Below are positions 1-38,971 of a stretch of DNA of 40,233 bases, piece by piece. Made by a program: the position numbers and the translations under genes. Source of the stretch: a virus. Lineage: Duplodnaviria; Heunggongvirae; Uroviricota; Caudoviricetes. The notes beneath the pieces are model-generated. The model did not search any database. It worked only from the letters and a program-made list of their open reading frames with translations, and had not been told where the DNA came from. The stretch spans positions 1 through 40,233 of the IMG/VR virus record IMGVR_UViG_2802429237_000003, one strand, 5' to 3'. Numbering within the stretch: the stretch's first letter is position 1; every line of letters starts with the position of its first letter.

Positions 1-1020
1 CTACTTACTGACCACAAGCGGCAAATCCAGTGTTGGGGTGATTTTGGTTTTACGATCGTAAATCAACACCTGATTTTCTGTTTTGTGTCCACTGAAAATT
101 TGTTTGTCGCGACTGCTGCCTTCGTAATCTGAAATCCCTTTGGCTTTTATGTCATGGAAGTTGCACCCAAACGGAACGCCGGCTTTTTGCTCGGCTGCAC
201 GTTTGGCCTGATTCCACCAGTTGTTCAGCGTTTTAGCTATGACCTTCCCGCCTTTGGTTGTGTTGATCACATACTCGCATGTGCCGGAAGATACATTTCG
301 GGCTAACTGGATCGCCGTACGTAATCGCGGAGACCATTCCTTGATTTGTTTGGTGCCGGTTTTGTTTTGCTCAATGTAAATCCCTTTATCCATAATATCC
401 TGCCATTTTAGCTCAAGCACATCACCGAGCCTTGCCGCACAAAGATAGGATATCTCCATTGCAATGCGTAACTGTGGAATTGCTTCCGCATATATTGCAG
501 CATACTGTTCATCGGTGATGTAAACAGTACGGGCTTTAAGTGTGAATTTTCTGACTCCTTTGCATGGATTATTTTTCACATACCCACGCTCATATCCCCA
601 TCCGTATACACGGCTCAGACTTGCCAGTTCATGGTTTGCCTGGGTCTTGCTCTCAAGTCCTCGCTTATCCATGAAAATTCTTACCTGTTCAATTTTTACA
701 TTATCAGCAAGCACTTTTCCGAATACTGCCAACAATGCCCTTTGATGTTGCCGATAATCTTTTTGGGTTCGAGGGGCCAGTTCTGTAAATGCAGGGGAGT
801 CCATAAACATGTGCCATAATTTAGCTACTGTCATTATGTTGTGGAGTTTTGCTTTTTCCAGCTCATAATTTTGCCAGACTTTAGCTACGCTGGTTTCCCG
901 CACTCTTCCGAGCCCTATAGTTCTTGTGCTTCCTTCGGGTTTCCATACGTAACTGTAACCATTCGATCTAACACGCGGTGGTAGTGCATTATCTTTTTTG
1001 TTTTTTCTTGGTCTTCCCAT
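1..1020 (-). CDS. int: phage integrase, tyrosine recombinase family (339 aa)
   Basis: Full ORF with TAG stop at window positions 1-3 (minus strand); size and C-terminal His/Tyr-containing region typical of lambdoid tyrosine integrases; sits at the prophage end next to an excisionase-like gene. Confidence 0.88.
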   Translation of the reverse strand: MGRPRKNKKDNALPPRVRSNGYSYVWKPEGSTRTIGLGRVRETSVAKVWQNYELEKAKLHNIMTVAKLWHMFMDSPAFTELAPRTQKDYRQHQRALLAVFGKVLADNVKIEQVRIFMDKRGLESKTQANHELASLSRVYGWGYERGYVKNNPCKGVRKFTLKARTVYITDEQYAAIYAEAIPQLRIAMEISYLCAARLGDVLELKWQDIMDKGIYIEQNKTGTKQIKEWSPRLRTAIQLARNVSSGTCEYVINTTKGGKVIAKTLNNWWNQAKRAAEQKAGVPFGCNFHDIKAKGISDYEGSSRDKQIFSGHKTENQVLIYDRKTKITPTLDLPLVVSK

Positions 1021-1306: not shown

Positions 1307-3763
1307 TTAAAAATCAACCGGATTCGGGATCAGTTTTTGCCAGATTGCTGAAACGTATTTTGCCTGGTGACGGGCGTCATCAAGTGCATTATGGCGCTCA
1401 CCTTCGAATGGAATATCCATTCTGGCATCAAAGTCTATGGCTTTTCCTAACTCAACGATTGTGCGTACATCTCGATCGTTGTAGTAACGCCACGGGCAGG
1501 GGATCCCCTGCCGTTCGTATGAACGGCGCAAAATCGTGTTGTCGAAGTTGGCTCCATTTCCCCAGACCTGAACAAAAAATTCACCGGAGTTTTCGTCGAT
1601 AAATTCCCGCAATTGTAACAGTGCATCATCTAACGGGATTTCATCGGTCATAATGGCAGATTGCGCTTCGCGTGATTGCTTAAGCCACCATTTAATGGTG
1701 TCCCGATCAATGACTCCGCCAGCAGTTTCCAGATCGATAGTCTTACTAAATTCCGGTCCCATATCTCCGGTTTGCGGATCGAAAAAAATTGCACCTATTG
1801 AGATGATCGGGGCATCAGGATTTTTTCCCATGGTTTCAAGGTCGATCATTAGATGGTCACACGTCCTGCTGGTGGATGTGATTTCGTGATGACCGTTCAC
1901 CTTAATTGAGTGATCTGCCGCCTCGCCAGTTTCATTATCGCTGGCGTGGTCCTGAGCGCTGCCAGCATTCTCCTTGTGTGGATGTTCAGCGCCTTCCATT
2001 TCCTCCGGATCATTTTCCTGAACTTCAACCTGATTCTCTTCATCGAATGTTTCCTGGTATGTTGCGTCGCCCATCACCGCGCCACAATCAGGGCAGTTGC
2101 CGTCACCGCTCTGACCGCAGGCGGTGCAGACTTTTTCCACTTCCTGTTGCGCCACTGGTTCAGGCTGTTTCGTTTCTGGCTCGTTTTGTAACGCATTTGG
2201 GCTGTTTTGTTCCGCTTTCTGGTCGTTCTGTTCCGATTCTTGCTGGTTCTGGTTTACAGAATCGCGGGTTTCAATTCCCTTCACCCATTTCGGATCATTC
2301 GGGTCGCTAATCCCTGCAACAAATTCTCCGCGAGAGGCAGCAAGCAGTTCAGCGGCGTCAGGCTGGTTGATATTGGCTGCCTGCATAATTTTGTTTACTT
2401 CGTCAGCGGTAACTTTTACCTGATTAACCGGATCTATCTGTGCCTGAGTATCCAGCGATTGCGTGTCCTGGCGATGTTCAGTTGTATCCGGCTCCATTGC
2501 TTCAGTCGTTGCCTGTTCATCTGCCATTGCGTCAGACGGTTGTGATTTTTCCTCATTATTTTTTTCTTCTTCTGTTTCGCGTTCAGCAGCCAGTTCGCGG
2601 TTAACTTCTTCCAGGATATCTTTTTCCGGTGTATGTCGTGCAGCAGTGAGAGTTTCCTCGGTAGGGTTCTCGTGATCAGTCTCCGTTAAGTGGGCGTTGA
2701 TATACTCCTGAAGGCGTCCCGGGTAGAGATAAAGTTCAGGGTGAGCACTTCGGATAAGTGCAAAAATAGCGGCACGGGAATAATCCAGAACACCCGGGGT
2801 TGCGCGAAGTGCTGCGGACCATTCTTTGAACGGACTTTCTTTCTTCCGGACGATTTCTTTTGCGCGACGATAAACGCTGCCCGGGATTTCATAAATATTA
2901 AAATCCATCGGAAGTGTGGCCGCTGCAATCTCCACATCCAGCGTATCGAAGGTGTGTACTAAATTCGGATTGCGATCGGTTTTGTTCCCTCCACCGGCAT
3001 TAGCACCGGAAGCCGTGCGGGTGATGCGTGAAACACGATTTCCTTTCATCCACTCTTTTGTCAGCAGACCGCGATCGGTGTAGTCAGCGCCCAGGTATGC
3101 TTCGAAAAAAGCAGTCATCAGTCCCAGGTCTGAATTACCAGGATTAGGGAAAACTTTGTCCGTGTCACGAACCAGTTTGTGGAGATCGCGAATTTCAAGC
3201 GGTTCGAGTTGCGCTGCTTTATTTGAGATGGCCAGCGCGGTAACGGCGGGAAGTTTTTCATCCTGTGCGTTATGTAATGCGCGCAGTTCGCCCCGCGAAA
3301 CGTGTGTGATCGGTTTTTCGCTGCCGTGCTGCGCCAGCCATCGAACAGGCAGAATCTGACCTGAAACCGGCAGGAGCATGTTCTCCTCAATCTCAGTCAT
3401 GTCTTCGCCGTTGACGTTGGTATTGTCAGTGCTGGCTGGTTTGTCCTGAACAGAGGGCGAGGGCGCGATAAGTACCATTGTGATACCATCTTCCCCGCCT
3501 TTTTCGTATCGGTTGCAGAATTCGGTATCAAACACGCCTTCCGGAGGAAGGTCATTCACAACGGGTAAATGGACGCGAACAGGTTTTTTAAAATCCTCTT
3601 CGTCAAATCCGGCATCGTCCATTGCGACAACACCGCGTGATATTGCAACCGATAATTTTTTTGCTGTGCGCCAGTAAAAACCGCCTTTAATCCCAAGACG
3701 TTTTCTGACTTTGTCATTTTTGGCTTCGTAATATAGTGCAATTTCTTCTTTATCAGCGCTCAT
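1307..3763 (-). CDS. large putative exonuclease (818 aa): N-terminal domain of unknown function, acidic linker with CxxC..CxxC zinc ribbon, C-terminal DnaQ-like DEDDh 3'-5' exonuclease domain
   Basis: C-terminal region has DLETMG ... WGNGANFDNTIL ... HNALDDA motifs matching the Exo I/II/III motifs of DEDDh exonucleases; SD GAGG 8 nt upstream of ATG at 3763. Confidence 0.75.
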   Translation of the reverse strand: MSADKEEIALYYEAKNDKVRKRLGIKGGFYWRTAKKLSVAISRGVVAMDDAGFDEEDFKKPVRVHLPVVNDLPPEGVFDTEFCNRYEKGGEDGITMVLIAPSPSVQDKPASTDNTNVNGEDMTEIEENMLLPVSGQILPVRWLAQHGSEKPITHVSRGELRALHNAQDEKLPAVTALAISNKAAQLEPLEIRDLHKLVRDTDKVFPNPGNSDLGLMTAFFEAYLGADYTDRGLLTKEWMKGNRVSRITRTASGANAGGGNKTDRNPNLVHTFDTLDVEIAAATLPMDFNIYEIPGSVYRRAKEIVRKKESPFKEWSAALRATPGVLDYSRAAIFALIRSAHPELYLYPGRLQEYINAHLTETDHENPTEETLTAARHTPEKDILEEVNRELAAERETEEEKNNEEKSQPSDAMADEQATTEAMEPDTTEHRQDTQSLDTQAQIDPVNQVKVTADEVNKIMQAANINQPDAAELLAASRGEFVAGISDPNDPKWVKGIETRDSVNQNQQESEQNDQKAEQNSPNALQNEPETKQPEPVAQQEVEKVCTACGQSGDGNCPDCGAVMGDATYQETFDEENQVEVQENDPEEMEGAEHPHKENAGSAQDHASDNETGEAADHSIKVNGHHEITSTSRTCDHLMIDLETMGKNPDAPIISIGAIFFDPQTGDMGPEFSKTIDLETAGGVIDRDTIKWWLKQSREAQSAIMTDEIPLDDALLQLREFIDENSGEFFVQVWGNGANFDNTILRRSYERQGIPCPWRYYNDRDVRTIVELGKAIDFDARMDIPFEGERHNALDDARHQAKYVSAIWQKLIPNPVDF

Positions 3764-3853: not shown

Positions 3854-4045
3854 TTAAAGCCCTGCCGGGACTTCGTTATTATCCATGCGAATAACTTTAT
3901 CGACCGGATAACAGTTACCTGGAATTTTCTGTTCCGCTGCGGCAGCCATGCATTCTTTCATTGAACCATATATACCAGTAACCACATCAACCGGTTCGCC
4001 TGTATTAAGAAAAACAGTCAGGGTGAGAGCAACAGCAGTATTCAT
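3854..4045 (-). CDS. ydfD: YdfD-like small membrane protein (63 aa)
   Basis: Internal ATG of the track ORF 3854..4099 gives 63 aa starting MNTAVALTLTVFL (hydrophobic N-terminus); the ATG overlaps the dicB stop (ATGA); position and size match ydfD of the E. coli Qin dicB operon as I recall it. Confidence 0.55.
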   Translation of the reverse strand: MNTAVALTLTVFLNTGEPVDVVTGIYGSMKECMAAAAEQKIPGNCYPVDKVIRMDNNEVPAGL

Positions 4046-4230
4046 TGCCAGTCTCCTTTTGGCATCAGACGTAAACGAGCCAGCATTGAAACAATGCATA
4101 TTTGATTTAATAGCTCCCGTTCGTGTTTTCTCTTATTAATCGCATCTTCAGTAAATACAGGGTTACTGATTCTGACACCAATTTCAAAACAACCTTCAGA
4201 CGTATTGACGTTTGGTAATAACGTTTCCAT
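4042..4230 (-). CDS. dicB: cell division inhibitor DicB homologue (62 aa)
   Basis: Internal ATG of ORF 4042..4326 gives 62 aa METLLPNVNTSEGCFEIGV...CIVSMLARLRLMPKGDWQ, near-identical in my recollection to E. coli DicB; SD GAGGA 8 nt upstream; preceded on the same strand by a DicF-like terminator hairpin. Confidence 0.78.
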   Translation of the reverse strand: METLLPNVNTSEGCFEIGVRISNPVFTEDAINKRKHERELLNQICIVSMLARLRLMPKGDWQ

Positions 4231-4423
4231 TATCGCGTCCTCAACAATGAATTTTGTGATACGGTGCCTGGTGCCTCCAGGTGACGTTAACCAGTTAACA
4301 ATTAACGCCGGATACAGAGAACCCACCCATAAGAACCAATACGGAAGTCAACTGGCCTTTTTAACTGTTCCGCGTGCGCTGAGCCGCATTCACCGCATCA
4401 CAAAATTCACTTTAAAAAGGGCG

Positions 4424-6183: not shown

Positions 6184-6822
6184 TTAAATATCTTGTTGAA
6201 TTTTAAAGCATACACCCAATATGCAAGATAGATCATCCAGCATAATTGAAGGGTAGCGAGGATTCGTGGGGACTAAAAGAATATCCGGCCCTTCTATCTC
6301 CAGTTTACGAATGACAGGTGTTGTGGTCCCTTTGGGTAAGGCAAGGACAATATTTCCTGGTTGTGCGGTTCGATCGGGATCAACAAAAACTGTTGATCCA
6401 TTTGGGATGGAAACTCCCCCACCAGATGTTGACATACTGTCACTCTCTAGAACAACTGCAAAGGTATTGGCCGGGATTTCTCCGACAAGCTGCACACAAG
6501 AGGTTATTGAGGAATTTTTCATATAATCACTCCAGCTTGCTGCCTGCTGAAGTGATAGTAGCGGAACCGTTTTTATCGGCGGTAAAGATAGATCAAGCGA
6601 ATCACCTGTATTTAACTCTCCTCCATTAAGAAGCCAATTTTCGTTTACTTTCAATATCTTTGCCAGTGAACTTATGTAACGCGAGGACGGCGCTCCTCCA
6701 CCGTTCATCCATTGACTTACGGAGCCTTTTGATGCGCCAGTGGCATTGACAAGGTCTTTGCCTTTCAGGTTTAGCGCATGCATACGTTGGGTTATGCGTT
6801 CAGATATTGTTTGCTTGCTCAT
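6184..6822 (-). CDS. CI-like prophage repressor: N-terminal HTH, C-terminal S24 LexA-like self-cleaving peptidase domain (212 aa)
   Basis: N-terminal HTH signature (GKDLVNATGASKGSVSQWMNG) and C-terminal S24-like region; divergent from the Cro-like gene with a ~90-bp operator-containing intergenic region. Confidence 0.85.
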   Translation of the reverse strand: MSKQTISERITQRMHALNLKGKDLVNATGASKGSVSQWMNGGGAPSSRYISSLAKILKVNENWLLNGGELNTGDSLDLSLPPIKTVPLLSLQQAASWSDYMKNSSITSCVQLVGEIPANTFAVVLESDSMSTSGGGVSIPNGSTVFVDPDRTAQPGNIVLALPKGTTTPVIRKLEIEGPDILLVPTNPRYPSIMLDDLSCILGVCFKIQQDI

Positions 6823-15552: not shown

Positions 15553-16599
15553 ATGGCTAATACTGTAAAAATATCCAGTTGTGAGTTAATCAACGCTGAT
15601 TGCCTGGAATTTATCCAGACCTTACCGGAAAACTCTGTCGATCTGATAGTCACAGACCCGCCATACTTTAAAGTGAAGCCCGAAGGCTGGGATAACCAGT
15701 GGAAGGGCGACGATGATTATCTGAAATGGCTGGACCAGTGTCTGGCGCAGTTCTGGCGGGTACTGAAGCCCGCCGGAAGTCTTTACCTGTTCTGTGGTCA
15801 TCGCCTGGCATCTGACACCGAAATCATGATGCGTGAGCGCTTTAATGTGCTGAACCACATTATCTGGGCGAAGCCGTCCGGGCGCTGGAACGGGTGCAAC
15901 AAGGAAAGCCTGCGGGCGTATTTTCCGGCAACAGAACGCATTCTGTTTGCAGAACATTATCAGGGGCCGTACCAGCCCAAAAATGACGGCTATGCGGCAA
16001 AGGGGCGCGAGCTAAAACAGCACGTCATGGCCCCGCTGATTTCTTACTTTCGTGATGCGCGTGAATCACTGGGAATAACGTCAAAACAGATAGCGGAAGC
16101 CACCGGAAAGAAAAACATGGCTTCGCACTGGTTTGGTACCAGTCAGTGGCAGTTGCCGAACGAAGGCGATTATCTGAAATTACAGGCGTTGTTTGCGCGT
16201 GTTGCAGCAGAAAAACATCAACGCGGGGAACTGGAAAAACCACACCACCAGCTGGTCAGCACATACAGTGAACTGAACCGGCAATATGCCAGCCTGCTGG
16301 AAGAGTACAAATCTTTACGGCGTTATTTTTCCGTATCGGCTGCCGTTCCGTATACGGATGTCTGGACGCACAAGCCCGTGCAGTATTATCCGGGCAAACA
16401 TCCCTGTGAAAAACCAGCCGATATGTTGCGCCAGATAATTACCGCCAGCAGTCGTCCGGGAGATTTGGTGGCTGATTTTTTTATGGGGTCAGGTTCCACA
16501 ATAAAGGCAGCATTGTCGCTCAGGCGTCGGGCTATTGGTGTGGAGCTGGAAGAAGAGAGATTTAATCAGACTGTGAAAGAAATAAAAAACTGCTGTTAA
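15553..16599 (+). CDS. DNA methyltransferase, beta-class amino-MTase (likely N6-adenine; 348 aa)
   Basis: DPPY motif IV near the N-terminus (VTDPPYF) and F-x-G-x-G motif I near the C-terminus (FFMGSGST): circularly permuted beta-class order; no adjacent restriction endonuclease gene. Confidence 0.85.
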   Translation: MANTVKISSCELINADCLEFIQTLPENSVDLIVTDPPYFKVKPEGWDNQWKGDDDYLKWLDQCLAQFWRVLKPAGSLYLFCGHRLASDTEIMMRERFNVLNHIIWAKPSGRWNGCNKESLRAYFPATERILFAEHYQGPYQPKNDGYAAKGRELKQHVMAPLISYFRDARESLGITSKQIAEATGKKNMASHWFGTSQWQLPNEGDYLKLQALFARVAAEKHQRGELEKPHHQLVSTYSELNRQYASLLEEYKSLRRYFSVSAAVPYTDVWTHKPVQYYPGKHPCEKPADMLRQIITASSRPGDLVADFFMGSGSTIKAALSLRRRAIGVELEEERFNQTVKEIKNCC

Positions 16600-17380: not shown

Positions 17381-17456
<76 letters not shown>

Positions 17457-17459
17457 TAT

Positions 17460-17534
<75 letters not shown>

Positions 17535-18479: not shown

Positions 18480-18747
18480 CCTTCCCGGCTTGCTGAATGT
18501 GGCGTTATGCACGGTTATTGTGCTGACGCTCTTTTTTTATCGTCGCCGTGATTCCAGACATAAACCGCTGATGTCATGGCTGGCCTGGCTGCTGATGCTG
18601 CTTTATGCCTTTGCACCTCTCAGCTATCTGTGCGGTCGCCCGTTAGCGGCGAACTGGCTGGCGGTGGGGCTTAATCTGCTGTTCTGCGTGTTGGTGATTC
18701 GCGCACGCGGGAACGTTTCAAAAATCTTTGTATTACGAAGGCGCTGA
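18469..18747 (+). CDS. putative holin/antiholin-type membrane protein (92 aa)
   Basis: ATG with GGAGGAGG SD; three predicted TM helices and a basic C-terminus (VLRRR); overlaps the upstream stop. Confidence 0.55.
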   Translation: MLSNLPGLLNVALCTVIVLTLFFYRRRDSRHKPLMSWLAWLLMLLYAFAPLSYLCGRPLAANWLAVGLNLLFCVLVIRARGNVSKIFVLRRR

Positions 18748-18748
18748 T

Positions 18749-19294
18749 ATGAAGTCGAAAGATGAAATTTTTGACGAAGTTCTGGGAAAAGAGGGCGGTT
18801 ACGTCAATCACCCGGATGATAAAGGCGGACCGACAAAATGGGGTATTACGGAAAAAGTCGCCCGCGCTCACGGATATCAGGGCGATATGCGTGACCTGAC
18901 ACGCGAACAGGCGCTGGAAATCCTTGAGGCGGATTACTGGTTCGGACCACGCTTTGATCAGGTGGCCGCATTATCCTCTGATATTGCTGCAGAGTTGTGT
19001 GATACCGGTGTGAATATGGGGCCGTCCGTAGCATCGAAAATGCTCCAACGCTGGCTGAACGTTTTCAACCTGCAAGGCAAATTGTTCCCGGATATGGACG
19101 CAGACGGGCGTATCGGCCCCCGCACGATTAATGCACTACGGACTTATCTGCAAAAACGCGGCAAAGACGGCGAACTGGTGATGCTGAAGGCGCTGAATTG
19201 CACGCAGGGCGACCGCTATCTGGAGCTGGCAGAAAAACGCGAGGCCAACGAGTCGTTTGTCTACGGCTGGATGAAAGAGCGCGTAGCAGTTTAA
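18749..19294 (+). CDS. endolysin, glycoside hydrolase family 108-like with C-terminal peptidoglycan-binding domain (181 aa)
   Basis: N-terminal EGGYVNHPDDKGGPTKWGIT resembles the GH108 signature; C-terminal region resembles a PG-binding domain; follows the holins. Confidence 0.8.
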   Translation: MKSKDEIFDEVLGKEGGYVNHPDDKGGPTKWGITEKVARAHGYQGDMRDLTREQALEILEADYWFGPRFDQVAALSSDIAAELCDTGVNMGPSVASKMLQRWLNVFNLQGKLFPDMDADGRIGPRTINALRTYLQKRGKDGELVMLKALNCTQGDRYLELAEKREANESFVYGWMKERVAV

Positions 19295-27396: not shown

Positions 27397-27455
27397 GGTC
27401 GTTAATGATTTTACCCACCCGCCGCTGGCGGGTTTTTTATTTTCAGGAGACGAGT

Positions 27456-28160
27456 ATGTCCTCTAATTTTGAACGTTCGCAACTGACGAAAATTATGATT
27501 TCGTCTGCACCGGTAACAGCAGAAACCCTGGATTCTGCCAGCTATCTTGGCCTGAGCTGTACAATCAAAGAGGTGCAGTTTACCGCAGGACAAAAGCAGG
27601 ATATTGATGTCACCACGCTGTGTTCTGTTGAGCAGGAAAATATTAACGGTCTTGGTGCCGCGTCAGAGATTTCCATGTCAGGCAACTTTTACCTCAATGC
27701 TGCCCAGAACGCGTTGCGCAGTGCCTATGACAATGACACCACGTATGGCTTTAAAGTTATTTTTCCGTCAGGAAACGGATTTACCTTTATGGCAGAGGTG
27801 CGTCAGCATACCTGGTCTGCAGGAACCAATGGTGTTGTGGCTGCAACGTTTTCCCTGCGCCTGAAAGGTAAACCTGTGCTGGCGACAGAGCCGCTGAAAG
27901 TGAAGGTCGATTTAAACAGCACGCTGCAGGTTTCTGCCGGAGCGAAACTCGAAATGGTGGTTGAGGCTGCCGGTGGTGTGCCGCCTTATTCTTATGTCTG
28001 GAAGAAAGGTAGTTCTCCTGTTTCCGGACAGACGGCGGCAACGTTCAGTAAGGCATCGGCAGTATCCGGTGATGCGGGCGCATATACCTGCGAGATTTCT
28101 GATTCAGCAAGCCCGGTTAACAAAGTGACCTCCACTTCCTGCACTGTAACCGTCAGTTAA
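27456..28160 (+). CDS. major tail protein with C-terminal Ig-like domain (234 aa)
   Basis: ATG with AGGAGACGAG SD after a terminator-like hairpin (27414-27440); position before the G/GT chaperones; C-terminal ~80 aa Ig-like. Confidence 0.7.
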   Translation: MSSNFERSQLTKIMISSAPVTAETLDSASYLGLSCTIKEVQFTAGQKQDIDVTTLCSVEQENINGLGAASEISMSGNFYLNAAQNALRSAYDNDTTYGFKVIFPSGNGFTFMAEVRQHTWSAGTNGVVAATFSLRLKGKPVLATEPLKVKVDLNSTLQVSAGAKLEMVVEAAGGVPPYSYVWKKGSSPVSGQTAATFSKASAVSGDAGAYTCEISDSASPVNKVTSTSCTVTVS

Positions 28161-28174
28161 TGAGGATGGGTGTG

Positions 28175-28546
28175 ATGACTAAAAATATCCGTAATCTGGC
28201 ACTGGCAACGATGTCGGGGTTTCGCCATAAAACTGTTGATGTGCCTGAATGGGAAGGAGCAACGGTTGTATTACGGGAACCTTCTGCAGAAGCCTGGTTG
28301 CGCTGGCAGGAGATCGTTAAAGCAAAAGATGATGAGACACCGTTATCCGTTGCGGAGCGCGCCCGCCGAAATCTGGAGGCAGATGTTGAACTGTTCATTG
28401 ATGTTCTGTGTGATACCGGACTGCAACCTGTATTTTCAGAGGATGATCGTGAACAGGTGATTGCCGTGTATGGCCCGGTGCATGCGCGGCTTCTTCGGCA
28501 GTCTCTGGAACTGATCAGTGATGCCGGCGAGGTTAAAAAAAAGTAG
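28175..28546 (+). CDS. tail assembly chaperone, lambda gpG analogue (123 aa)
   Basis: Position between major tail and tape-measure genes; ends GEVKKK-stop on a slippery A-run. Confidence 0.7.
   Translation: MTKNIRNLALATMSGFRHKTVDVPEWEGATVVLREPSAEAWLRWQEIVKAKDDETPLSVAERARRNLEADVELFIDVLCDTGLQPVFSEDDREQVIAVYGPVHARLLRQSLELISDAGEVKKK
28536..28543 (+). other. -1 programmed ribosomal frameshift slippery site (GTT AAA AAA AAG TAG)
   Basis: Eight A followed by G at the last codons of the G-like gene; the downstream ORF is in the -1 frame. Confidence 0.55.
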
Positions 28547-28848
28547 CGCTTCCGGGGATGCGTTTTCTGATGATGCTGGCACTCAGGATGGGGCGCACAT
28601 TGTCAGAGTTACGCCGGGAAATGTCCGCATCAGAAATCATGATGTGGGCAGAATTTGACAGGTTCAGCCCGCTGGGGGACGAACGGGCTGATATCCGGGC
28701 TGCCCAGATTGTTTCAGCTGTTTACGGTGCGCAGGGGGTCAAAGTGCCACTGAATGATGCGCTTCTTCAGTGGGATCAGGAGCAGACAGAAGGCACCTCA
28801 GATCCATTTGCTGAGATTGAGAAGGCATTATTTGTTGCAGCTCGATGA
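28543..28848 (+). CDS. T-frame extension expressed as G-T fusion chaperone by -1 frameshift
   Basis: ORF 28558..28848 has no plausible SD and lies in the -1 frame relative to G, open back to the slippery site. Confidence 0.55.
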   Translation, partial: VALPGMRFLMMLALRMGRTLSELRREMSASEIMMWAEFDRFSPLGDERADIRAAQIVSAVYGAQGVKVPLNDALLQWDQEQTEGTSDPFAEIEKALFVAAR

Positions 28849-28857
28849 TCTTTTCAT

Positions 28858-28886
28858 TTGACTGGATTATTATTCCCATTTTATTG
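28858..28886 (+). promoter_or_regulatory. candidate promoter of the tail-cluster moron (TTGACT, 16 bp, TTTATT)
   Basis: Hexamers ~20 bp upstream of SD TAAGGAAA and the ATG at 28903. Confidence 0.3.
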
Positions 28887-28902
28887 AGAAAGTAAGGAAA
28901 CA

Positions 28903-29247
28903 TTGATGGAATTTTTACTTATTTCAATAGTTTTGGGACTAATTCCAGCTATTATTGCGAAAAGCAAAGGTCGCTCATTTTTAGGATGGTGGGTATATGG
29001 TGCGATGATCTTTATTGTTGCTCTGGTTCATTCGCTAGTAATCCAAAGAGATGAGAAGGCACATGAACAACAAATGGTAAGCAATGGCATGAAGAAATGC
29101 CCTTACTGTGCGGAGTTGATCAAAGAAGAGGCTATTAAATGTAAGCATTGCGGTAGTGATTTAATTTGCAATGCAGATAGTTCCGTTTCACAAAAAACGG
29201 ATGATGAATATCTTCAGGAAGCAAGGCGTAAGGCCGGACTTCTTTAA
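28903..29247 (+). CDS. moron-encoded membrane protein: two TM helices resembling a superinfection-immunity domain, fused to a C-terminal CPYC...CKHCG zinc ribbon (114 aa)
   Basis: TM region [21 protein letters not shown] resembles Imm_superinfect-type small membrane proteins; AT-rich; own SD and terminator; inserted between GT and tape-measure genes. Confidence 0.6.
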
Positions 29248-29254
29248 AGAATAC

Positions 29255-29280
29255 AAAAACCGCTTCGGCGGTTTTTTTTC
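29255..29280 (+). terminator. rho-independent terminator after the moron
   Basis: ACCGC(TTCG)GCGGT followed by T8. Confidence 0.65.
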
Positions 29281-29289
29281 GTCCGGAGA

Positions 29290-32200
29290 ATGAGTGTGGC
29301 GACATTACGTGAACTGATTATTAAAATCTCGGCAAACTCCCGGTCATTCCAGTCAGAGATCTCCCGGGCTTCGCGTATGGGGCAGGATTACTACCGCACC
29401 ATGCAGAACGGAAGCCGACAGTCCGCTGTTGCATCCCATGAAATGCGGCGTGCACTGGCAGAAGTGACGGATCAGATAAATACAGCCAAATCTTCGGCAC
29501 TGAACATGGCGGGGGCATTTGCCGGGGCTTTTGCTACCGGTCATCTTATTTCTCTCGCCGATGAGTGGAATTCAGTCAATGCCCGTCTGAAGCAGGCCTC
29601 ACAGTCCAGTGATGATTTTCAGGTATCACAACGTGAATTAATGGCAATCAGCCAGAGAACGGGGACGGCTTTTTCTGATAACGCCAGCCTTTTTGCCCGC
29701 TCTGCAGCTTCCATGCGGGAGTATGGCTACAGTTCTGAGGAGGTACTGAAAGTCACCGAGGCGATCTCCACGGGCCTGAAATTATCCGGTGCCAGTACAG
29801 CAGAAGCCAGTTCGGTGATCACGCAGTTCAGTCAGGCACTGGCGCAGGGAGTGCTGCGCGGTGAAGAATTTAACTCTGTGAATGAGAACGGCGATCGTGT
29901 TATTCGTGCGCTGGCTGCGGGAATGGGCGTTGCCCGTAAGGATCTGAAGGCCATGGCAGATGACGGAAAGCTGACCGCCGATAAGGTTGTTCCTGCACTG
30001 ATTAGTCAGCTTGGGGCGTTACGTGATGAATATGCAGCAATGCCTGATACGGTTTCATCCTCTGCAACCAAAGTTGAAAACGCCTTTATGGCCTGGGTTG
30101 GTGGTGCGAACGAGGCAAGCGGAGTGACGAAGACACTCACCGGAGTGTTGAATGGTGTTGCAGGCAATATTGATACCGTGGCGGCTGCAGCTGGTGCACT
30201 GGTTGCCGTCGGGGTAGCCCGATATTTTGGCAATATGGCGTCGTCTGCTGGATCTGCAACTGCCGGATTAATTACTGCAGCCAGAAACGAAGTAGCTCTT
30301 GCGGAAGCGCAGCTCCGGGGGACGCAGATAGCAACCGCCAGGGCGCGTGCGGCGGTTTATCGTGCGCAACAGGCGGTCGCGGCTACCCGTGGTACTGAAA
30401 GACAGGCAGCCGCAGAAGCGAAATTGGCTGCTGCCCAGGCGTCACTTACCCGTAATATTGCGGCCAGAACAGCGGCACAGACAACGCTGAATACTGTCAC
30501 GTCAGTGGGGAGTCGTCTGTTAAGTGGGGCACTGGGACTGGTTGGGGGTGTGCCGGGACTTGTCATGCTGGGGGCCGCAGCCTGGTACACAATGTATCAG
30601 AATCAGGAGCAGGCCAGAGAATCTGCACGCCAGTATGCCGCAACAATCGACGAAATTCGCCAGAAAACGTCGGCAATGTCGCTTCCTGAAGCGTCAGATA
30701 ATGAGGAAAAGACGCGACAGGCACTGAAGGAGCAGAACAGGTTAATTGACGAGCAGAAAAGTAAGATTAAATCCTTACAGGAAAAAATTGCTGGCTATCA
30801 GTATGTGCTGGCAAACCCGGGCTGGACAACCGATAACGGTTTTATGATTAACCACATGACGTCGGTAAAAACTGTCACAGAAGGGCTTGCCGAAGCAACA
30901 AATCAACTGGCAGTTGAACAGTCTCGCCTCACTCAAATGCAGGGCAAAGCGCAATCCATTCAGGATGTGCTTGCCGGGCTGGAGGAGCGACGGGTGGCGT
31001 TGATCCGTCAACAGGCAGCGGAACAAAACAAAGCGTATCAGTCCCTGTTGATCATGAATGGGCAGCATACCGAGTTTAATCGCCTTCTCGGGCTTGGTAA
31101 TGAATTACTTCAGCAGCGACAGGGGCTGGTGAATGTACCGTTACGGCTACCACAGGCAACTCTGGATGATAAACAGCAGACCGCACTGAATAACAGCAAG
31201 CGCGAACTGGCTCTGTCCCGCCTTAAGGGGGAAGCGCGTGAGCGTGCCCGACTGGGCTATGCTGCGGATGATCTCGGCTTTGTGGGAGAGGCGTATCAGA
31301 CAGCCAGACAGAATTATATCAATAACTCACTGGATGCCTGGCGAAATAACCAGGCAAATAAACCCAAAGCGCATAAAAAGACCGAAGCGGAAAAAACAGA
31401 AGATATTTATAAACGGCTGATTAAACAGCAGAAAGAACAGATAGCACTGGCAGGGCAGAATACTGAACTGGCTAAGATGAAATATCAGGTCAGTCAGGGC
31501 GAATTATCAACCCTGTCAGAAGCGCAGAAAAAAACGCTTTTGCAGAATGCAGCACTCATCGACCAGAAAAAGATTCGTGAGCAGCTTGCTGCGTATGAGA
31601 GCAGTCTGGCGGACAGTAATGCCAGTGCCCGGGCATCTGACGAAGCGCAGTTGCTGGGATATGGTGAAGGCTCACGGATGCGTGAACGACTCCAGGAAAT
31701 GTGGAGTATCCGGCAGGCGTTTGAGCAGAAAAATAACGAGCTGCTGAGACAGTATCAGGCCGGAGAAATTGAAGAAGCCCTGTGGAAACAGGAGAAAGAA
31801 CTGAATAAAAAATATCTGGAAGAGCGTCTCAGCGATCAGCAGGATTATTATGTAAAGGCCGATGCTTTACGCAGTAACTGGAATGCCGGACTCCAGGAGG
31901 GACTGACCAACTGGGCAGACAGTGCCACCGATTATGCTTCACAGGCGGCAGATGCTGTCGTTTCCACGATGGACGGGCTGGTATCAAATATTTTCGATGC
32001 ACTGGCCGGGAATGTTGTGGAGTGGAGGAACTGGGGGAGTTCAGTTCTCCGGGAAGTTTCAAAAATTCTGATGAATGCGGCCATTGTTAACGGACTGAAG
32101 TCACTCTCCGGTGCCGGAGGGTGGCTTGGTACGGTCGGCGGATGGATTTCGGGGGCGGTGGCAAACGCAAAAGGTGGTGTTTACACATCGGCAAATCTGA

Positions 32201-32523
32201 GTGCTTACAGTAACACTATTGTGGATACACCGACGTATTTTGCTTTTGCGAAAGGTGCCGGGCTGATGGGCGAGGCCGGGCCTGAAGCTATCATGCCACT
32301 GACACGGGCAGCGGACGGCTCTCTTGGGGTCAGAGCCATTGGCAATGTGAATGGTGGCGGTGGATTTGTTTATTCTCCCGTGTATCACATCAGCATTCAG
32401 AATCAAGGGAGCAATGGCGAGATAGATACGCGCTCAGCCAGGGGACTGGTGGATCTGATCGACAGCAGGGTTGTGTCAATTATGCAGTCATCGCGTCGGG
32501 ATGGAGGATTATACAGTGCCTGA
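29290..32523 (+). CDS. tail tape measure protein, lambda gpH-like (1077 aa)
   Basis: Size, Ala/Gln-rich coiled-coil composition, position between chaperones and M/L/K/I. Confidence 0.9.
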   Translation: MSVATLRELIIKISANSRSFQSEISRASRMGQDYYRTMQNGSRQSAVASHEMRRALAEVTDQINTAKSSALNMAGAFAGAFATGHLISLADEWNSVNARLKQASQSSDDFQVSQRELMAISQRTGTAFSDNASLFARSAASMREYGYSSEEVLKVTEAISTGLKLSGASTAEASSVITQFSQALAQGVLRGEEFNSVNENGDRVIRALAAGMGVARKDLKAMADDGKLTADKVVPALISQLGALRDEYAAMPDTVSSSATKVENAFMAWVGGANEASGVTKTLTGVLNGVAGNIDTVAAAAGALVAVGVARYFGNMASSAGSATAGLITAARNEVALAEAQLRGTQIATARARAAVYRAQQAVAATRGTERQAAAEAKLAAAQASLTRNIAARTAAQTTLNTVTSVGSRLLSGALGLVGGVPGLVMLGAAAWYTMYQNQEQARESARQYAATIDEIRQKTSAMSLPEASDNEEKTRQALKEQNRLIDEQKSKIKSLQEKIAGYQYVLANPGWTTDNGFMINHMTSVKTVTEGLAEATNQLAVEQSRLTQMQGKAQSIQDVLAGLEERRVALIRQQAAEQNKAYQSLLIMNGQHTEFNRLLGLGNELLQQRQGLVNVPLRLPQATLDDKQQTALNNSKRELALSRLKGEARERARLGYAADDLGFVGEAYQTARQNYINNSLDAWRNNQANKPKAHKKTEAEKTEDIYKRLIKQQKEQIALAGQNTELAKMKYQVSQGELSTLSEAQKKTLLQNAALIDQKKIREQLAAYESSLADSNASARASDEAQLLGYGEGSRMRERLQEMWSIRQAFEQKNNELLRQYQAGEIEEALWKQEKELNKKYLEERLSDQQDYYVKADALRSNWNAGLQEGLTNWADSATDYASQAADAVVSTMDGLVSNIFDALAGNVVEWRNWGSSVLREVSKILMNAAIVNGLKSLSGAGGWLGTVGGWISGAVANAKGGVYTSANLSAYSNTIVDTPTYFAFAKGAGLMGEAGPEAIMPLTRAADGSLGVRAIGNVNGGGGFVYSPVYHISIQNQGSNGEIDTRSARGLVDLIDSRVVSIMQSSRRDGGLYSA

Positions 32524-38371: not shown

Positions 38372-38971
38372 ATGCGTAAATTATGTGCTGTTATTTTGTC
38401 CGCAGTAGTCTGGCAGGTCGCCGCTGCTACGCCAGCGAGTGCAGCAGAACATCAGTCCACGCTGAGCGCGGGGTATCTCCATGCCTCAACGAACGCTCCC
38501 GGCAGCGATAATCTGAACGGGATTAACGTGAAATACCGTTATGAGTTTACGGACATGCTGGGTGTTGTGACGTCATTCAGTTATGCCAATGCCAAAGATG
38601 AGCAAAAAACGCATTACAGCGATACCCGCTGGCATGAGGATTCCGTGCGTAACCGCGGGTTCAGTGTGATGGCGGGGCCGTCTGTTCGCGTGAATGAATG
38701 GTTCAGCGCGTATGCGATGGCGGGTATGGCTTACAGCCGTGTGTCGACTTTCTCCGGGGATTATCTGCAGGTGACCGACAATACGGGGAAAAAGCATGAT
38801 GTGCTGACCGGAAGTGATGACGGTCGCCACAGCAACACGTCTCTGGCGTGGGGGGCTGGCGTGCAGTTTAACCCGACCGAATCCGTGGCCATTGATATTG
38901 CTTATGAAGGCTCCGGCAGTGGTGACTGGCGCACTGACGGTTTCATCGTGGGTGTCGGTTATAAATTCTGA
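38372..38971 (+). CDS. lom: Lom outer-membrane protein (Ail/Lom/PagC family; 199 aa)
   Basis: Signal peptide; C-terminus DIAYEGSGSGDWRTDGFIVGVGYKF and internal GINVKYRYE..VMAGP..AYAMAG match lambda Lom as I recall it. Confidence 0.9.
   Translation: MRKLCAVILSAVVWQVAAATPASAAEHQSTLSAGYLHASTNAPGSDNLNGINVKYRYEFTDMLGVVTSFSYANAKDEQKTHYSDTRWHEDSVRNRGFSVMAGPSVRVNEWFSAYAMAGMAYSRVSTFSGDYLQVTDNTGKKHDVLTGSDDGRHSNTSLAWGAGVQFNPTESVAIDIAYEGSGSGDWRTDGFIVGVGYKF

Follow-up and report, generated by a model that had tools for sequence, protein, structure and literature searches.

A moron next to the tape-measure gene of a lambdoid prophage carries a membrane zinc-ribbon protein

The IMG/VR virus record IMGVR_UViG_2802429237_000003 (positions 1 to 40,233; this whole stretch of 40,233 nt is called the window below) is a complete lambdoid prophage of E. 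coli with HK97-type head genes and lambda-type tail genes. Between its tail assembly chaperone genes (G and T) and the tape-measure gene (H) lies a small plus-strand gene (28906-29247; ATG at 28906, stop codon at 29245-29247) coding for a protein of 113 amino acids (aa). This element is a genuine moron at a textbook moron site, and it carries a membrane zinc-ribbon protein that is uncharacterised but already catalogued. The slot is the site of gene 15 of phage HK97, the element for which the term moron was first used (PMC3594210). The protein matches phrog_8436, a family of unknown function (E = 2e-50; aa 1-111 versus profile positions 1-108 of 110), and RefSeq has it under the name 'zinc ribbon domain-containing protein' (WP_000394908.1). 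An earlier sequence-only reading of this DNA did not recognise such a fusion at this position as described; given the HK97 gene 15 site, the PHROG family and the RefSeq annotation, this view cannot be kept. With regard to function, we tentatively favour an Imm/gp15-like inner-membrane protein that would block the entry of DNA mediated by the tape-measure protein.

Insertion at the chaperone/tape-measure junction

The insert was delimited by comparison with relatives in which the slot is empty. Ten Escherichia phages (Evi, phi467, PhiR49_2 and several vB_Eco phages) showed 97% identity to positions 28100-30000 of the window, minus 401 bp. Their matches consisted of two pieces with 77% query cover, spanning 1500 nt compared with 1901 nt of the query. 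In the alignment with Evi, the homology ended after position 28811 and resumed at 29258. The insert-specific segment (28812-29257, plus strand) thus comprises 446 nt versus 45 nt in Evi, which corresponds to a net gain of 401 nt. The final 12 codons of T (28812-28848) are unlike those of the empty-slot relatives and travel with the insert. The GC content was 0.34-0.42 across 28800-29300 and 0.52-0.55 in the flanks, and the bin 28801-29200, with a value of 0.37, was the lowest among 100 bins of the window. The moron segment is a true insertion because relatives that are 97% identical in the flanks lack these ~401 bp. The sequence-only reading, which described an AT-rich, moron-type insert between the G/GT chaperone genes and the tape-measure gene, and expected relatives in which the two abut, was correct in this respect. 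After the stop codon of T, the order is a 57-nt AT-rich spacer, an AGGA ribosome-binding site, the open reading frame (ORF) of 113 codons, a hairpin with U8, and the tape-measure gene.

The occupancy of the slot was surveyed in 5426 complete E. coli genomes with the use of a chimeric query, in which the 3' end of T was joined to the 5' end of H. The tail module was present in 903 of the 5426 genomes, and nearly all sampled rows were about 1000 bp long, the size of an empty slot. The insert was found in 45 genomes, invariably between T and H, and in three forms. One form was at least 99% identical to the window copy (15 genomes, and one more at 98.9%), the second was 88.8% identical (at least 2 genomes), and the third, 83.9% identical and located in a more divergent prophage, accounted for most of the remaining ~27 genomes. 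E. coli SC516 and Ecol_545 are examples of strains in which the insert is identical to that of the window. The comparison of the window copy with the 83.9%-identical variant gave a ratio of nonsynonymous to synonymous substitution rates (dN/dS) of 0.08 at dS 0.86. Because of this low ratio, the intact gene is, as judged by its substitutions, kept by purifying selection. The 88.8% copy of E. coli 2014C-3075 (L004:6040-6390) is a pseudogene by its sequence because a frameshift is present and the first CxxC is missing; RefSeq annotates nothing there, and the flanking genes are annotated and apparently intact. The moron gene is dispensable for phage growth, since Evi and phi467, both isolated as phages, do not have it and the copy in 2014C-3075 is frameshifted.

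These data bear on whether the gene serves the phage itself, as a tail-assembly accessory, in lysis timing, or in the protection of progeny from re-injection, and is expressed by late read-through only. The gene lies in the same orientation within the late operon and so must be transcribed late, its candidate promoter is weak, and a small protein with two transmembrane (TM) helices is superficially holin-like. We nevertheless consider a late function of this kind very improbable. The gene is absent from isolated phages that are 97% identical in their tail genes, and ~98% of the closely related E. coli prophage tail modules, as judged from the sampled rows, have an empty slot. Its decayed copy stands between annotated and apparently intact genes, the gene occurs in at least four different slots as well as at non-phage sites, and the window has lysis genes of its own, e.g., a GH108 endolysin (18728-19294).

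One further rearrangement was observed at this junction. In E. coli MEI3A-1023 (L106:2996-5647), the IS66-family element ISEc23 is located just past the T/H junction, and a truncated 'hypothetical protein' stub is annotated at the expected start of the tape-measure gene.

The product of HK97 gene 15, gp15, is a prophage-expressed inner-membrane exclusion protein, and its effect depends on the tail of the incoming phage (PMC3594210). Its gene occupies the identical slot, after G/GT and before the tape-measure gene, with a terminator-like hairpin following the cargo. Similarly to the moron protein, gp15 is a small predicted inner-membrane protein of cellular-family origin, encoded by an AT-rich add-on that is missing in close relatives. 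It differs in having 62 aa, one hydrophobic helix, membership of the Pfam family YebO (PF13974) and no zinc ribbon. Exclusion was shown experimentally in the case of gp15, whereas it is predicted for the moron protein. Another cargo was found between T and H in E. coli UR21/11-869 (NZ_OU342919.1, L105:808-1149), where the slot holds a 113-aa lipoprotein (MRKSVVTLACLFFISAC...) of phrog_2320, a family of unknown function, with no Pfam match. The slot is therefore known to hold three unrelated cargos, all of them envelope proteins: gp15/YebO in HK97, the moron family and the phrog_2320 lipoprotein.

The Shine-Dalgarno sequence AGGA (28895-28898, plus strand) is located 7 nt before the ATG, and AAGGAG or AAGGAA is kept at this site in the insert variants, in agreement with the ribosome-binding site noted earlier. 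The promoter-like hexamers that were attributed to the insert are weak and do not make a clear promoter. TTGACT (28858-28863, plus strand), likely the -35 element meant in the sequence-only reading, is a good 5/6 match to TTGACA; no usable -10 element was found 15-19 nt past it, and the position is not conserved in variants, where it reads TTTACT or ATAACT. A weak candidate sigma-70 promoter, better conserved in relatives, is present at 28845-28873 (plus strand), in which the -35 hexamer ATGATC (28845-28850), overlapping the stop codon of T, is followed after 17 nt by the -10 hexamer TATTAT (28868-28873), with 8 of 12 matches in total. Among 10 family contexts, 8 have a -10 element that ends 28-33 nt before the ATG (~5 among the 7 that are independent), compared with 3-12% per locus in shuffled sequences. 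Because this distance window was chosen post hoc, after the data had been seen, the positional conservation is suggestive only of the ATGATC/TATTAT pair being the promoter of the moron gene. A scan for the sigma-70 consensus upstream of the ORF reported no promoter.

The gene is followed by a terminator-like hairpin, AAAAACCGC-UUCG-GCGGUUUUU with U8 (29255-29280, plus strand), with a folding energy of -12.8 kcal/mol (z = -1.9). The hairpin CCGC-UUCG-GCGG with its U8 is identical base for base in Evi (L001 2258-2279), which does not have the insert; there it stands 8 nt after the stop codon of T, with no cargo gene in between. Since it is identical in a phage with an empty slot, the hairpin is, on this comparison, a resident feature of the T/H junction and was not brought by the insert. 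The terminator-like hairpin of the sequence-only reading is thus in place after the gene, but it is apparently not the insert's own. Analogous hairpins were found 3' of the cargo gene in HK97 and in other cargo-bearing loci. Within the late operon, such a hairpin might serve as an attenuator, as a stabiliser of the mRNA 3' end, or as a target at which morons land by recombination. A second terminator-like hairpin (ACCCGCC-GCT-GGCGGGT with a T-run, 27417-27433) is located between the tail-completion and major tail genes, and a putative terminator is annotated after the major tail gene of HK97. The genes of the tail operon are thus less tightly coupled than the sequence-only reading described.

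The moron protein and its family

An in-frame TTG at 28903 would give a product of 114 aa, the length reported in the sequence-only reading. The ORF is real, and both the ATG start and the RefSeq call give 113 aa. Hydropathy analysis showed hydrophobic segments at ~aa 2-18 and 25-47. In the AlphaFold2 model (mean predicted local distance difference test score 75.7), two helices (2-21 and 25-45) are joined by the loop KSKGRS and are followed by a linker helix (50-59), the zinc ribbon (62-86), a disordered stretch, and a terminal helix (99-109). The ribbon matches Zn_ribbon_3 (PF13248) with 34.7 bits, above the gathering score of 27, and its cysteines are C65, C68, C79 and C82. Two TM helices and a CxxC..CxxC zinc ribbon, as read earlier from the sequence, are therefore both supported. 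An alignment of 31 relatives, all of which match Zn_ribbon_3, revealed a strongly conserved core (aa 1-86) and a variable remainder. In all 31 relatives, 21 residues are invariant: G11, P14, A15, A18, K21, G22, F25, W28, W29, Y31, G32, F36, A39, H42, C65, C68, E70, A76, C79, C82 and D85. The C-terminal tail may be short, or it may add a domain of ~80 aa, another ribbon, or a third hydrophobic helix.

The sequence-only reading called the ribbon cytoplasmic, which is an assumption. By the positive-inside rule, the loop KSKGRS would be cytoplasmic and the ribbon periplasmic. C4 zinc ribbons are normally cytoplasmic. In the relatives with a third helix, basic residues are present on the ribbon side, and the topology clues from duplicated or fused relatives (P0121, P0124, and P0078/P0120 with the third helix) are mutually contradictory. 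If the ribbon is periplasmic, its cysteines may form disulfides instead of binding zinc.

Structure and family searches gave little beyond the ribbon, with no solved structure and no fold match that was informative. A sequence search of the PDB returned weak matches only, of the ribbon to ribosomal protein L32 (E ~0.2). The best Foldseek match in the PDB (E = 0.13) was to generic zinc fingers of the RanBP2/NZF type, and Foldseek against BFVD found only uncharacterised 'zinc-ribbon containing' phage proteins. The NCBIfam models gave nothing meaningful for the moron protein.

The family is large, with more than 1600 relatives found. The hairpin alone is represented by 1993 clusters (50% identity) among 1.84 billion proteins. 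It may stand alone (60-70 aa), be present in two copies, or be fused with HTH_3 or pentapeptide repeats, and no Pfam model covers it. The module was observed twice per protein in P0124 (149 aa), P0121 (497 aa) and P0202 (303 aa). In P0124 and P0121, the number of hydrophobic helices between the copies is apparently odd, and P0121 has an HTH_3 domain at its N terminus, ahead of the module; the odd spacing hints that the copies would face opposite ways and pack antiparallel.

In Enterobacterales, the members of the family behave as prophage cargo at several add-on sites. They are located between T and H in E. coli, Cronobacter, Enterobacter, an uncultured Enterobacteriaceae genome and Salmonella phage FSL SP-016, between K and I in Atlantibacter, directly after a K-like gene in Xenorhabdus, between L and K in Edwardsiella, and after the tailspike gene in Enterobacter, where the neighbour is an acyltransferase or a YafO toxin. 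The family was also found near Rha-type early genes, in Yersinia and Klebsiella phage KP12. All of the closest 80 IMG/VR loci (61-100% identity) have the gene directly upstream of the tape-measure gene, after the chaperones (80/80). A ribbon-bearing member is located between the chaperone and tape-measure genes also in the Pseudomonas phages YMC11/02/R656 and vB_PaeS-D14C. The slot of vB_PaeS-D14C holds two ORFs (L110:3512-3928 and 3965-4276), coding for a lipoprotein and for a hairpin/zinc-ribbon protein of the window type. The vB_PaeS-D14C record omits both cargo ORFs and lists a 58-aa antisense 'hypothetical protein' at 3873-4049. In Yersinia massiliensis (L028:4986-5907), a member of 183 aa was observed in a non-tail prophage region, with a lipoprotein gene (MKKLILSLAVLVLAGCG...) 7 nt downstream.

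Outside phages, 570 relatives were found in GTDB genomes, with 50-57% identity over aa 1-86, in Acidobacteriota, Planctomycetota, Chloroflexota, Bacillota, Nitrospirota and other phyla. The genes of the family were located by a hidden Markov model search of the loci. Their neighbours are heterogeneous and mostly housekeeping genes, with a few integrases and ParE toxins. Because the relatives span many phyla outside phages and have such heterogeneous neighbours, the phage moron gene looks like a captured cellular membrane protein, just as gp15 is a captured YebO. An SPFH/Band_7 gene was found at most 31 nt upstream, on the same strand, in seven Nitrospirota/Thermodesulfovibrionia loci from metagenome-assembled genomes (L062, L064, L065, L070, L076, L086 and L051), and in one of them the called ORFs overlap. 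The two genes probably form an operon. No other conserved operon partner was found outside phages.

This distribution suggests the main alternative, in which the protein would be a lysogenic-conversion factor acting on the envelope physiology of the host (membrane organisation, protease control, stress or metal handling) with its cellular function retained. It agrees with the identity of the 570 relatives across many phyla, with their mostly housekeeping neighbours, with the gene placed downstream of SPFH/Band_7 in the seven loci, and with the occurrence of the hairpin module by itself, in two copies, or as a fusion with HTH_3 and pentapeptide domains. However, no partner is conserved beyond one lineage, and such a role does not explain why, in unrelated phages of two host groups, the gene repeatedly stands next to the tape-measure gene. 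Moreover, HK97 gp15 also comes from a cellular family and is an exclusion protein all the same. We regard such a role as possible but unlikely. If it is nevertheless the true one, the family is a very widespread group of small membrane proteins built on a hairpin without a Pfam model.

Relation to T4 Imm and a possible block of DNA entry

The sequence-only reading stated that the TM helices resemble those of superinfection-immunity proteins. As stated, this does not hold, because the moron protein gave no match to Imm_superinfect (PF14373) at E <= 1, and the 25 Pfam families with the most matches in the alignment of 31 relatives do not include it. A resemblance of a more distant kind was found by way of a relative with both parts. 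The same model scored 58 bits with T4 Imm and 66.8 bits (E = 1.6e-18) with gp065 of Pseudomonas phage YMC11/02/R656. This gp065 combines an Imm_superinfect hairpin with the same ribbon as the moron protein, is related to it at tblastn E = 3e-8, and matches phrog_8436 with E = 1.7e-18. Its gene is located between Phage_TAC_4 + DUF1799 and the tape-measure gene. The two proteins share the order of hairpin, linker, CPYCAE.I... ribbon and variable tail, the ribbon subtype, and the slot. They differ in that the hairpin of gp065 belongs to the other hairpin family; gp065 was named by homology only, and no experimental test of it was found. The architecture PF14373 + PF13248 is common and carries the NCBI name 'superinfection immunity protein', so that a fusion of an Imm-type hairpin with a ribbon, which the earlier reading did not recognise as described at this position, is in fact widespread in databases.

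The two families were compared by their profiles. At full length, the comparison gave 99.5% probability (E = 1.4e-22), with the score coming mostly from the ribbon and the hairpins in register. In the case of the hairpin only, the probability was 25% (P = 7.8e-4) with small alignments and 51% (P = 1.5e-4) with 260 versus 117 sequences, while reversed-sequence controls gave at most 0.4% (P = 0.16-0.23). In this register, P14, A18, K21, G27-W28, G32 and A39 fall on P, A, R, GW, G and A of the Imm type. None of the 385 collected proteins matched both hairpin models at E <= 1e-5. For this reason we treat the moron family and the Imm-plus-ribbon proteins as sister architectures; the profile data are suggestive of homology between the hairpin and that of Imm.

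T4 Imm is reported to bind the T4 tape-measure protein and thereby to block genome translocation, and its mutants R33A and W50A lose activity (bioRxiv 10.64898/2026.03.06.709160, 2026 preprint). By the profile register, R33 and W50 correspond to K21 and W28 of the moron protein, which are invariant or nearly so in its family. T4 Imm and the moron protein, the latter by prediction, are small inner-membrane proteins with a helical hairpin, in which a basic loop is combined with an LP..(I/V)A and a GW motif. The tape-measure protein is the binding partner of Imm, and the moron gene adjoins the tape-measure gene. The differences are a loop 10 residues shorter in the moron protein, the lack of a zinc ribbon in Imm, and the origin of Imm as an early gene of a lytic phage and not a prophage moron.

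The proposed block of DNA entry, in which the moron protein would act in the manner of Imm and gp15, is based on the mechanism of T4 Imm, on the slot, and on the recurrence of the gene beside tape-measure genes in distant phages. A cassette of ~400 bp, AT-rich and comprising a weak candidate promoter, a ribosome-binding site and one gene, is lodged upstream of the resident hairpin. By analogy with Imm and gp15, the protein would be made in the lysogen and inserted into the inner membrane. There, it could keep the incoming tape-measure protein from opening a conduit through the inner membrane, and the superinfecting DNA would stay out. Contact with the tape-measure protein would be made by the conserved hairpin, and the zinc ribbon and the variable tail might serve oligomerisation or specificity.

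A number of observations weigh against this explanation, beginning with the failure of Imm_superinfect to match the protein or to rank among the top families of its relatives. The window-type hairpin compared with T4 Imm alone gave 5% probability (E = 0.0073), which is noise level, and much of the link to Imm comes from the zinc ribbon, a common module that the two families have alike. Homology to HK97 gp15 was considered and rejected (BLASTP E = 0.30), and the moron protein has no YebO match. The core, 50-57% identical across phyla in non-phage contexts, fits a conserved cellular target better than it fits an exclusion protein engaged in an arms race. With respect to expression in the lysogen, the sigma-70 scan reported no promoter. 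The chaperone/tape-measure position may simply be a permissive insertion site. PADLOC-DB 2.0 gave no system match, only two hits at the zinc-finger level (E = 0.0012 and 0.0067), and literature searches on the accession numbers, the PHROG identifier, and zinc ribbon with moron or exclusion returned no papers and no functional datum on any family member. Taken with these points, the entry block stays the explanation we tentatively favour, and it agrees with the lysogen-expressed exclusion factor that the sequence-only reading considered plausible.

Other exclusion systems were compared at the level of function. P22 SieA and similar proteins are prophage inner-membrane proteins that block DNA entry without receptor masking (PMC3594210, PMC10883804). 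SieA is encoded at another genomic location, and the analogy is functional only. Tab of Pseudomonas phage JBD26 is likewise a late-operon moron and acts on the tape-measure protein of invading phages (PMC10884400). It differs in having 83 residues with no similarity to proteins or domains of known function, in being encoded between terminase genes, and in blocking tail assembly and not entry (PMC10884400). Tai (PMC11364771) and Tab (PMC10884400) were rejected as counterparts of the moron protein; they are unrelated proteins at other loci and offer functional analogies only.

The moron protein might also act alone in abortive infection, as a membrane effector in which the ribbon or the tail senses a phage product and the hairpin oligomerises into a depolarising pore. 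The TM hairpin is tightly constrained and has invariant polar or aromatic residues (K21, W28, W29, Y31 and H42), the C-terminal tail after the conserved core is variable, and the gene is found beside ParE or YafO toxins and integrases. The duplicated hairpins with odd helix spacing (P0124 and P0121) would be compatible with antiparallel bundles. Against this stand the lack of a match among PADLOC models, the lack of evidence for toxicity or a trigger, and the common occurrence of the family in non-mobile contexts. In addition, the ribbon is the most conserved and not a variable part, which makes it a poor sensor candidate. We judge a pore-forming effector improbable.

A broader reading, which we put forward as speculative, joins the window protein and the Imm-plus-ribbon proteins into one ancient superfamily, in which two-helix hairpins are tethered to a CPYCAE...CKHCG ribbon and have been repeatedly recruited by Enterobacterales and Pseudomonas phages beside their tape-measure genes as a general inhibitor of pore formation. 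If true, the superfamily would represent a widespread and unrecognised determinant of phage DNA entry, or of a conserved inner-membrane process that tape-measure proteins exploit. If the proposed entry block is right, the chaperone/tape-measure junction of siphophage tail operons would be a dedicated parking place for inner-membrane factors directed against tape-measure proteins, with gp15, the moron family, the Imm-plus-ribbon proteins and lipoproteins as its known or candidate cargos, and this would provide a simple genomic rule for spotting entry-blocking genes. It would also offer a second tractable system, besides T4 Imm, for studying the passage of tape-measure proteins through the inner membrane. 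Such genes would shape which therapeutic or temperate phages infect E. coli lysogens. A specific hypothesis can be put to a direct test here because the family recurs next to the tape-measure gene and is probably akin to Imm.

The tail operon and the rest of the prophage

The tail assembly chaperone gene G (28160-28546, plus strand) follows the major tail gene and matches Phage_TAC_1 with E = 2.8e-58. The slippery heptamer A AAA AAG was read from the sequence at its end (28537-28543), and, by comparison with the HK97 annotation, would allow a -1 shift into the T frame of the G-T chaperone fusion (28558-28848, plus strand; Phage_tail_T, E = 1e-20). The tape-measure protein H is encoded at 29296-32523 (plus strand). 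The mechanical ORF call begins at ATG 29290; the start is likely GTG 29296, located 8 nt after GGAG and giving MATLRELII..., because it is the RefSeq start in strain SC516 and H of HK97 begins with MATLRELII. The homologue of H in the Cronobacter locus belongs to the Phage_HK97_TLTM and Tape_meas_lam_C families.

The other genes of the prophage include an integrase (1-1020, minus strand), an S24-type repressor (6184-6822), and, after J, a Lom homologue (38372-38971), a full-length outer-membrane protein of the Ail/Lom type. Two further genes of accessory type were observed besides the moron and the Lom homologue. One codes for a DNA methylase of the N6/N4 type (15553-16599), and the other for an 818-aa protein (1307-3763, minus strand), in which exonuclease VIII is joined with an Rv2179c-like 3'-5' exoribonuclease domain. 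An Rfam search of the whole window found two tRNAs only, and the insert had no match. These tRNAs, Thr (UGU) and Gly (UCC), form a pair at 17381-17534, upstream of the lysis region.

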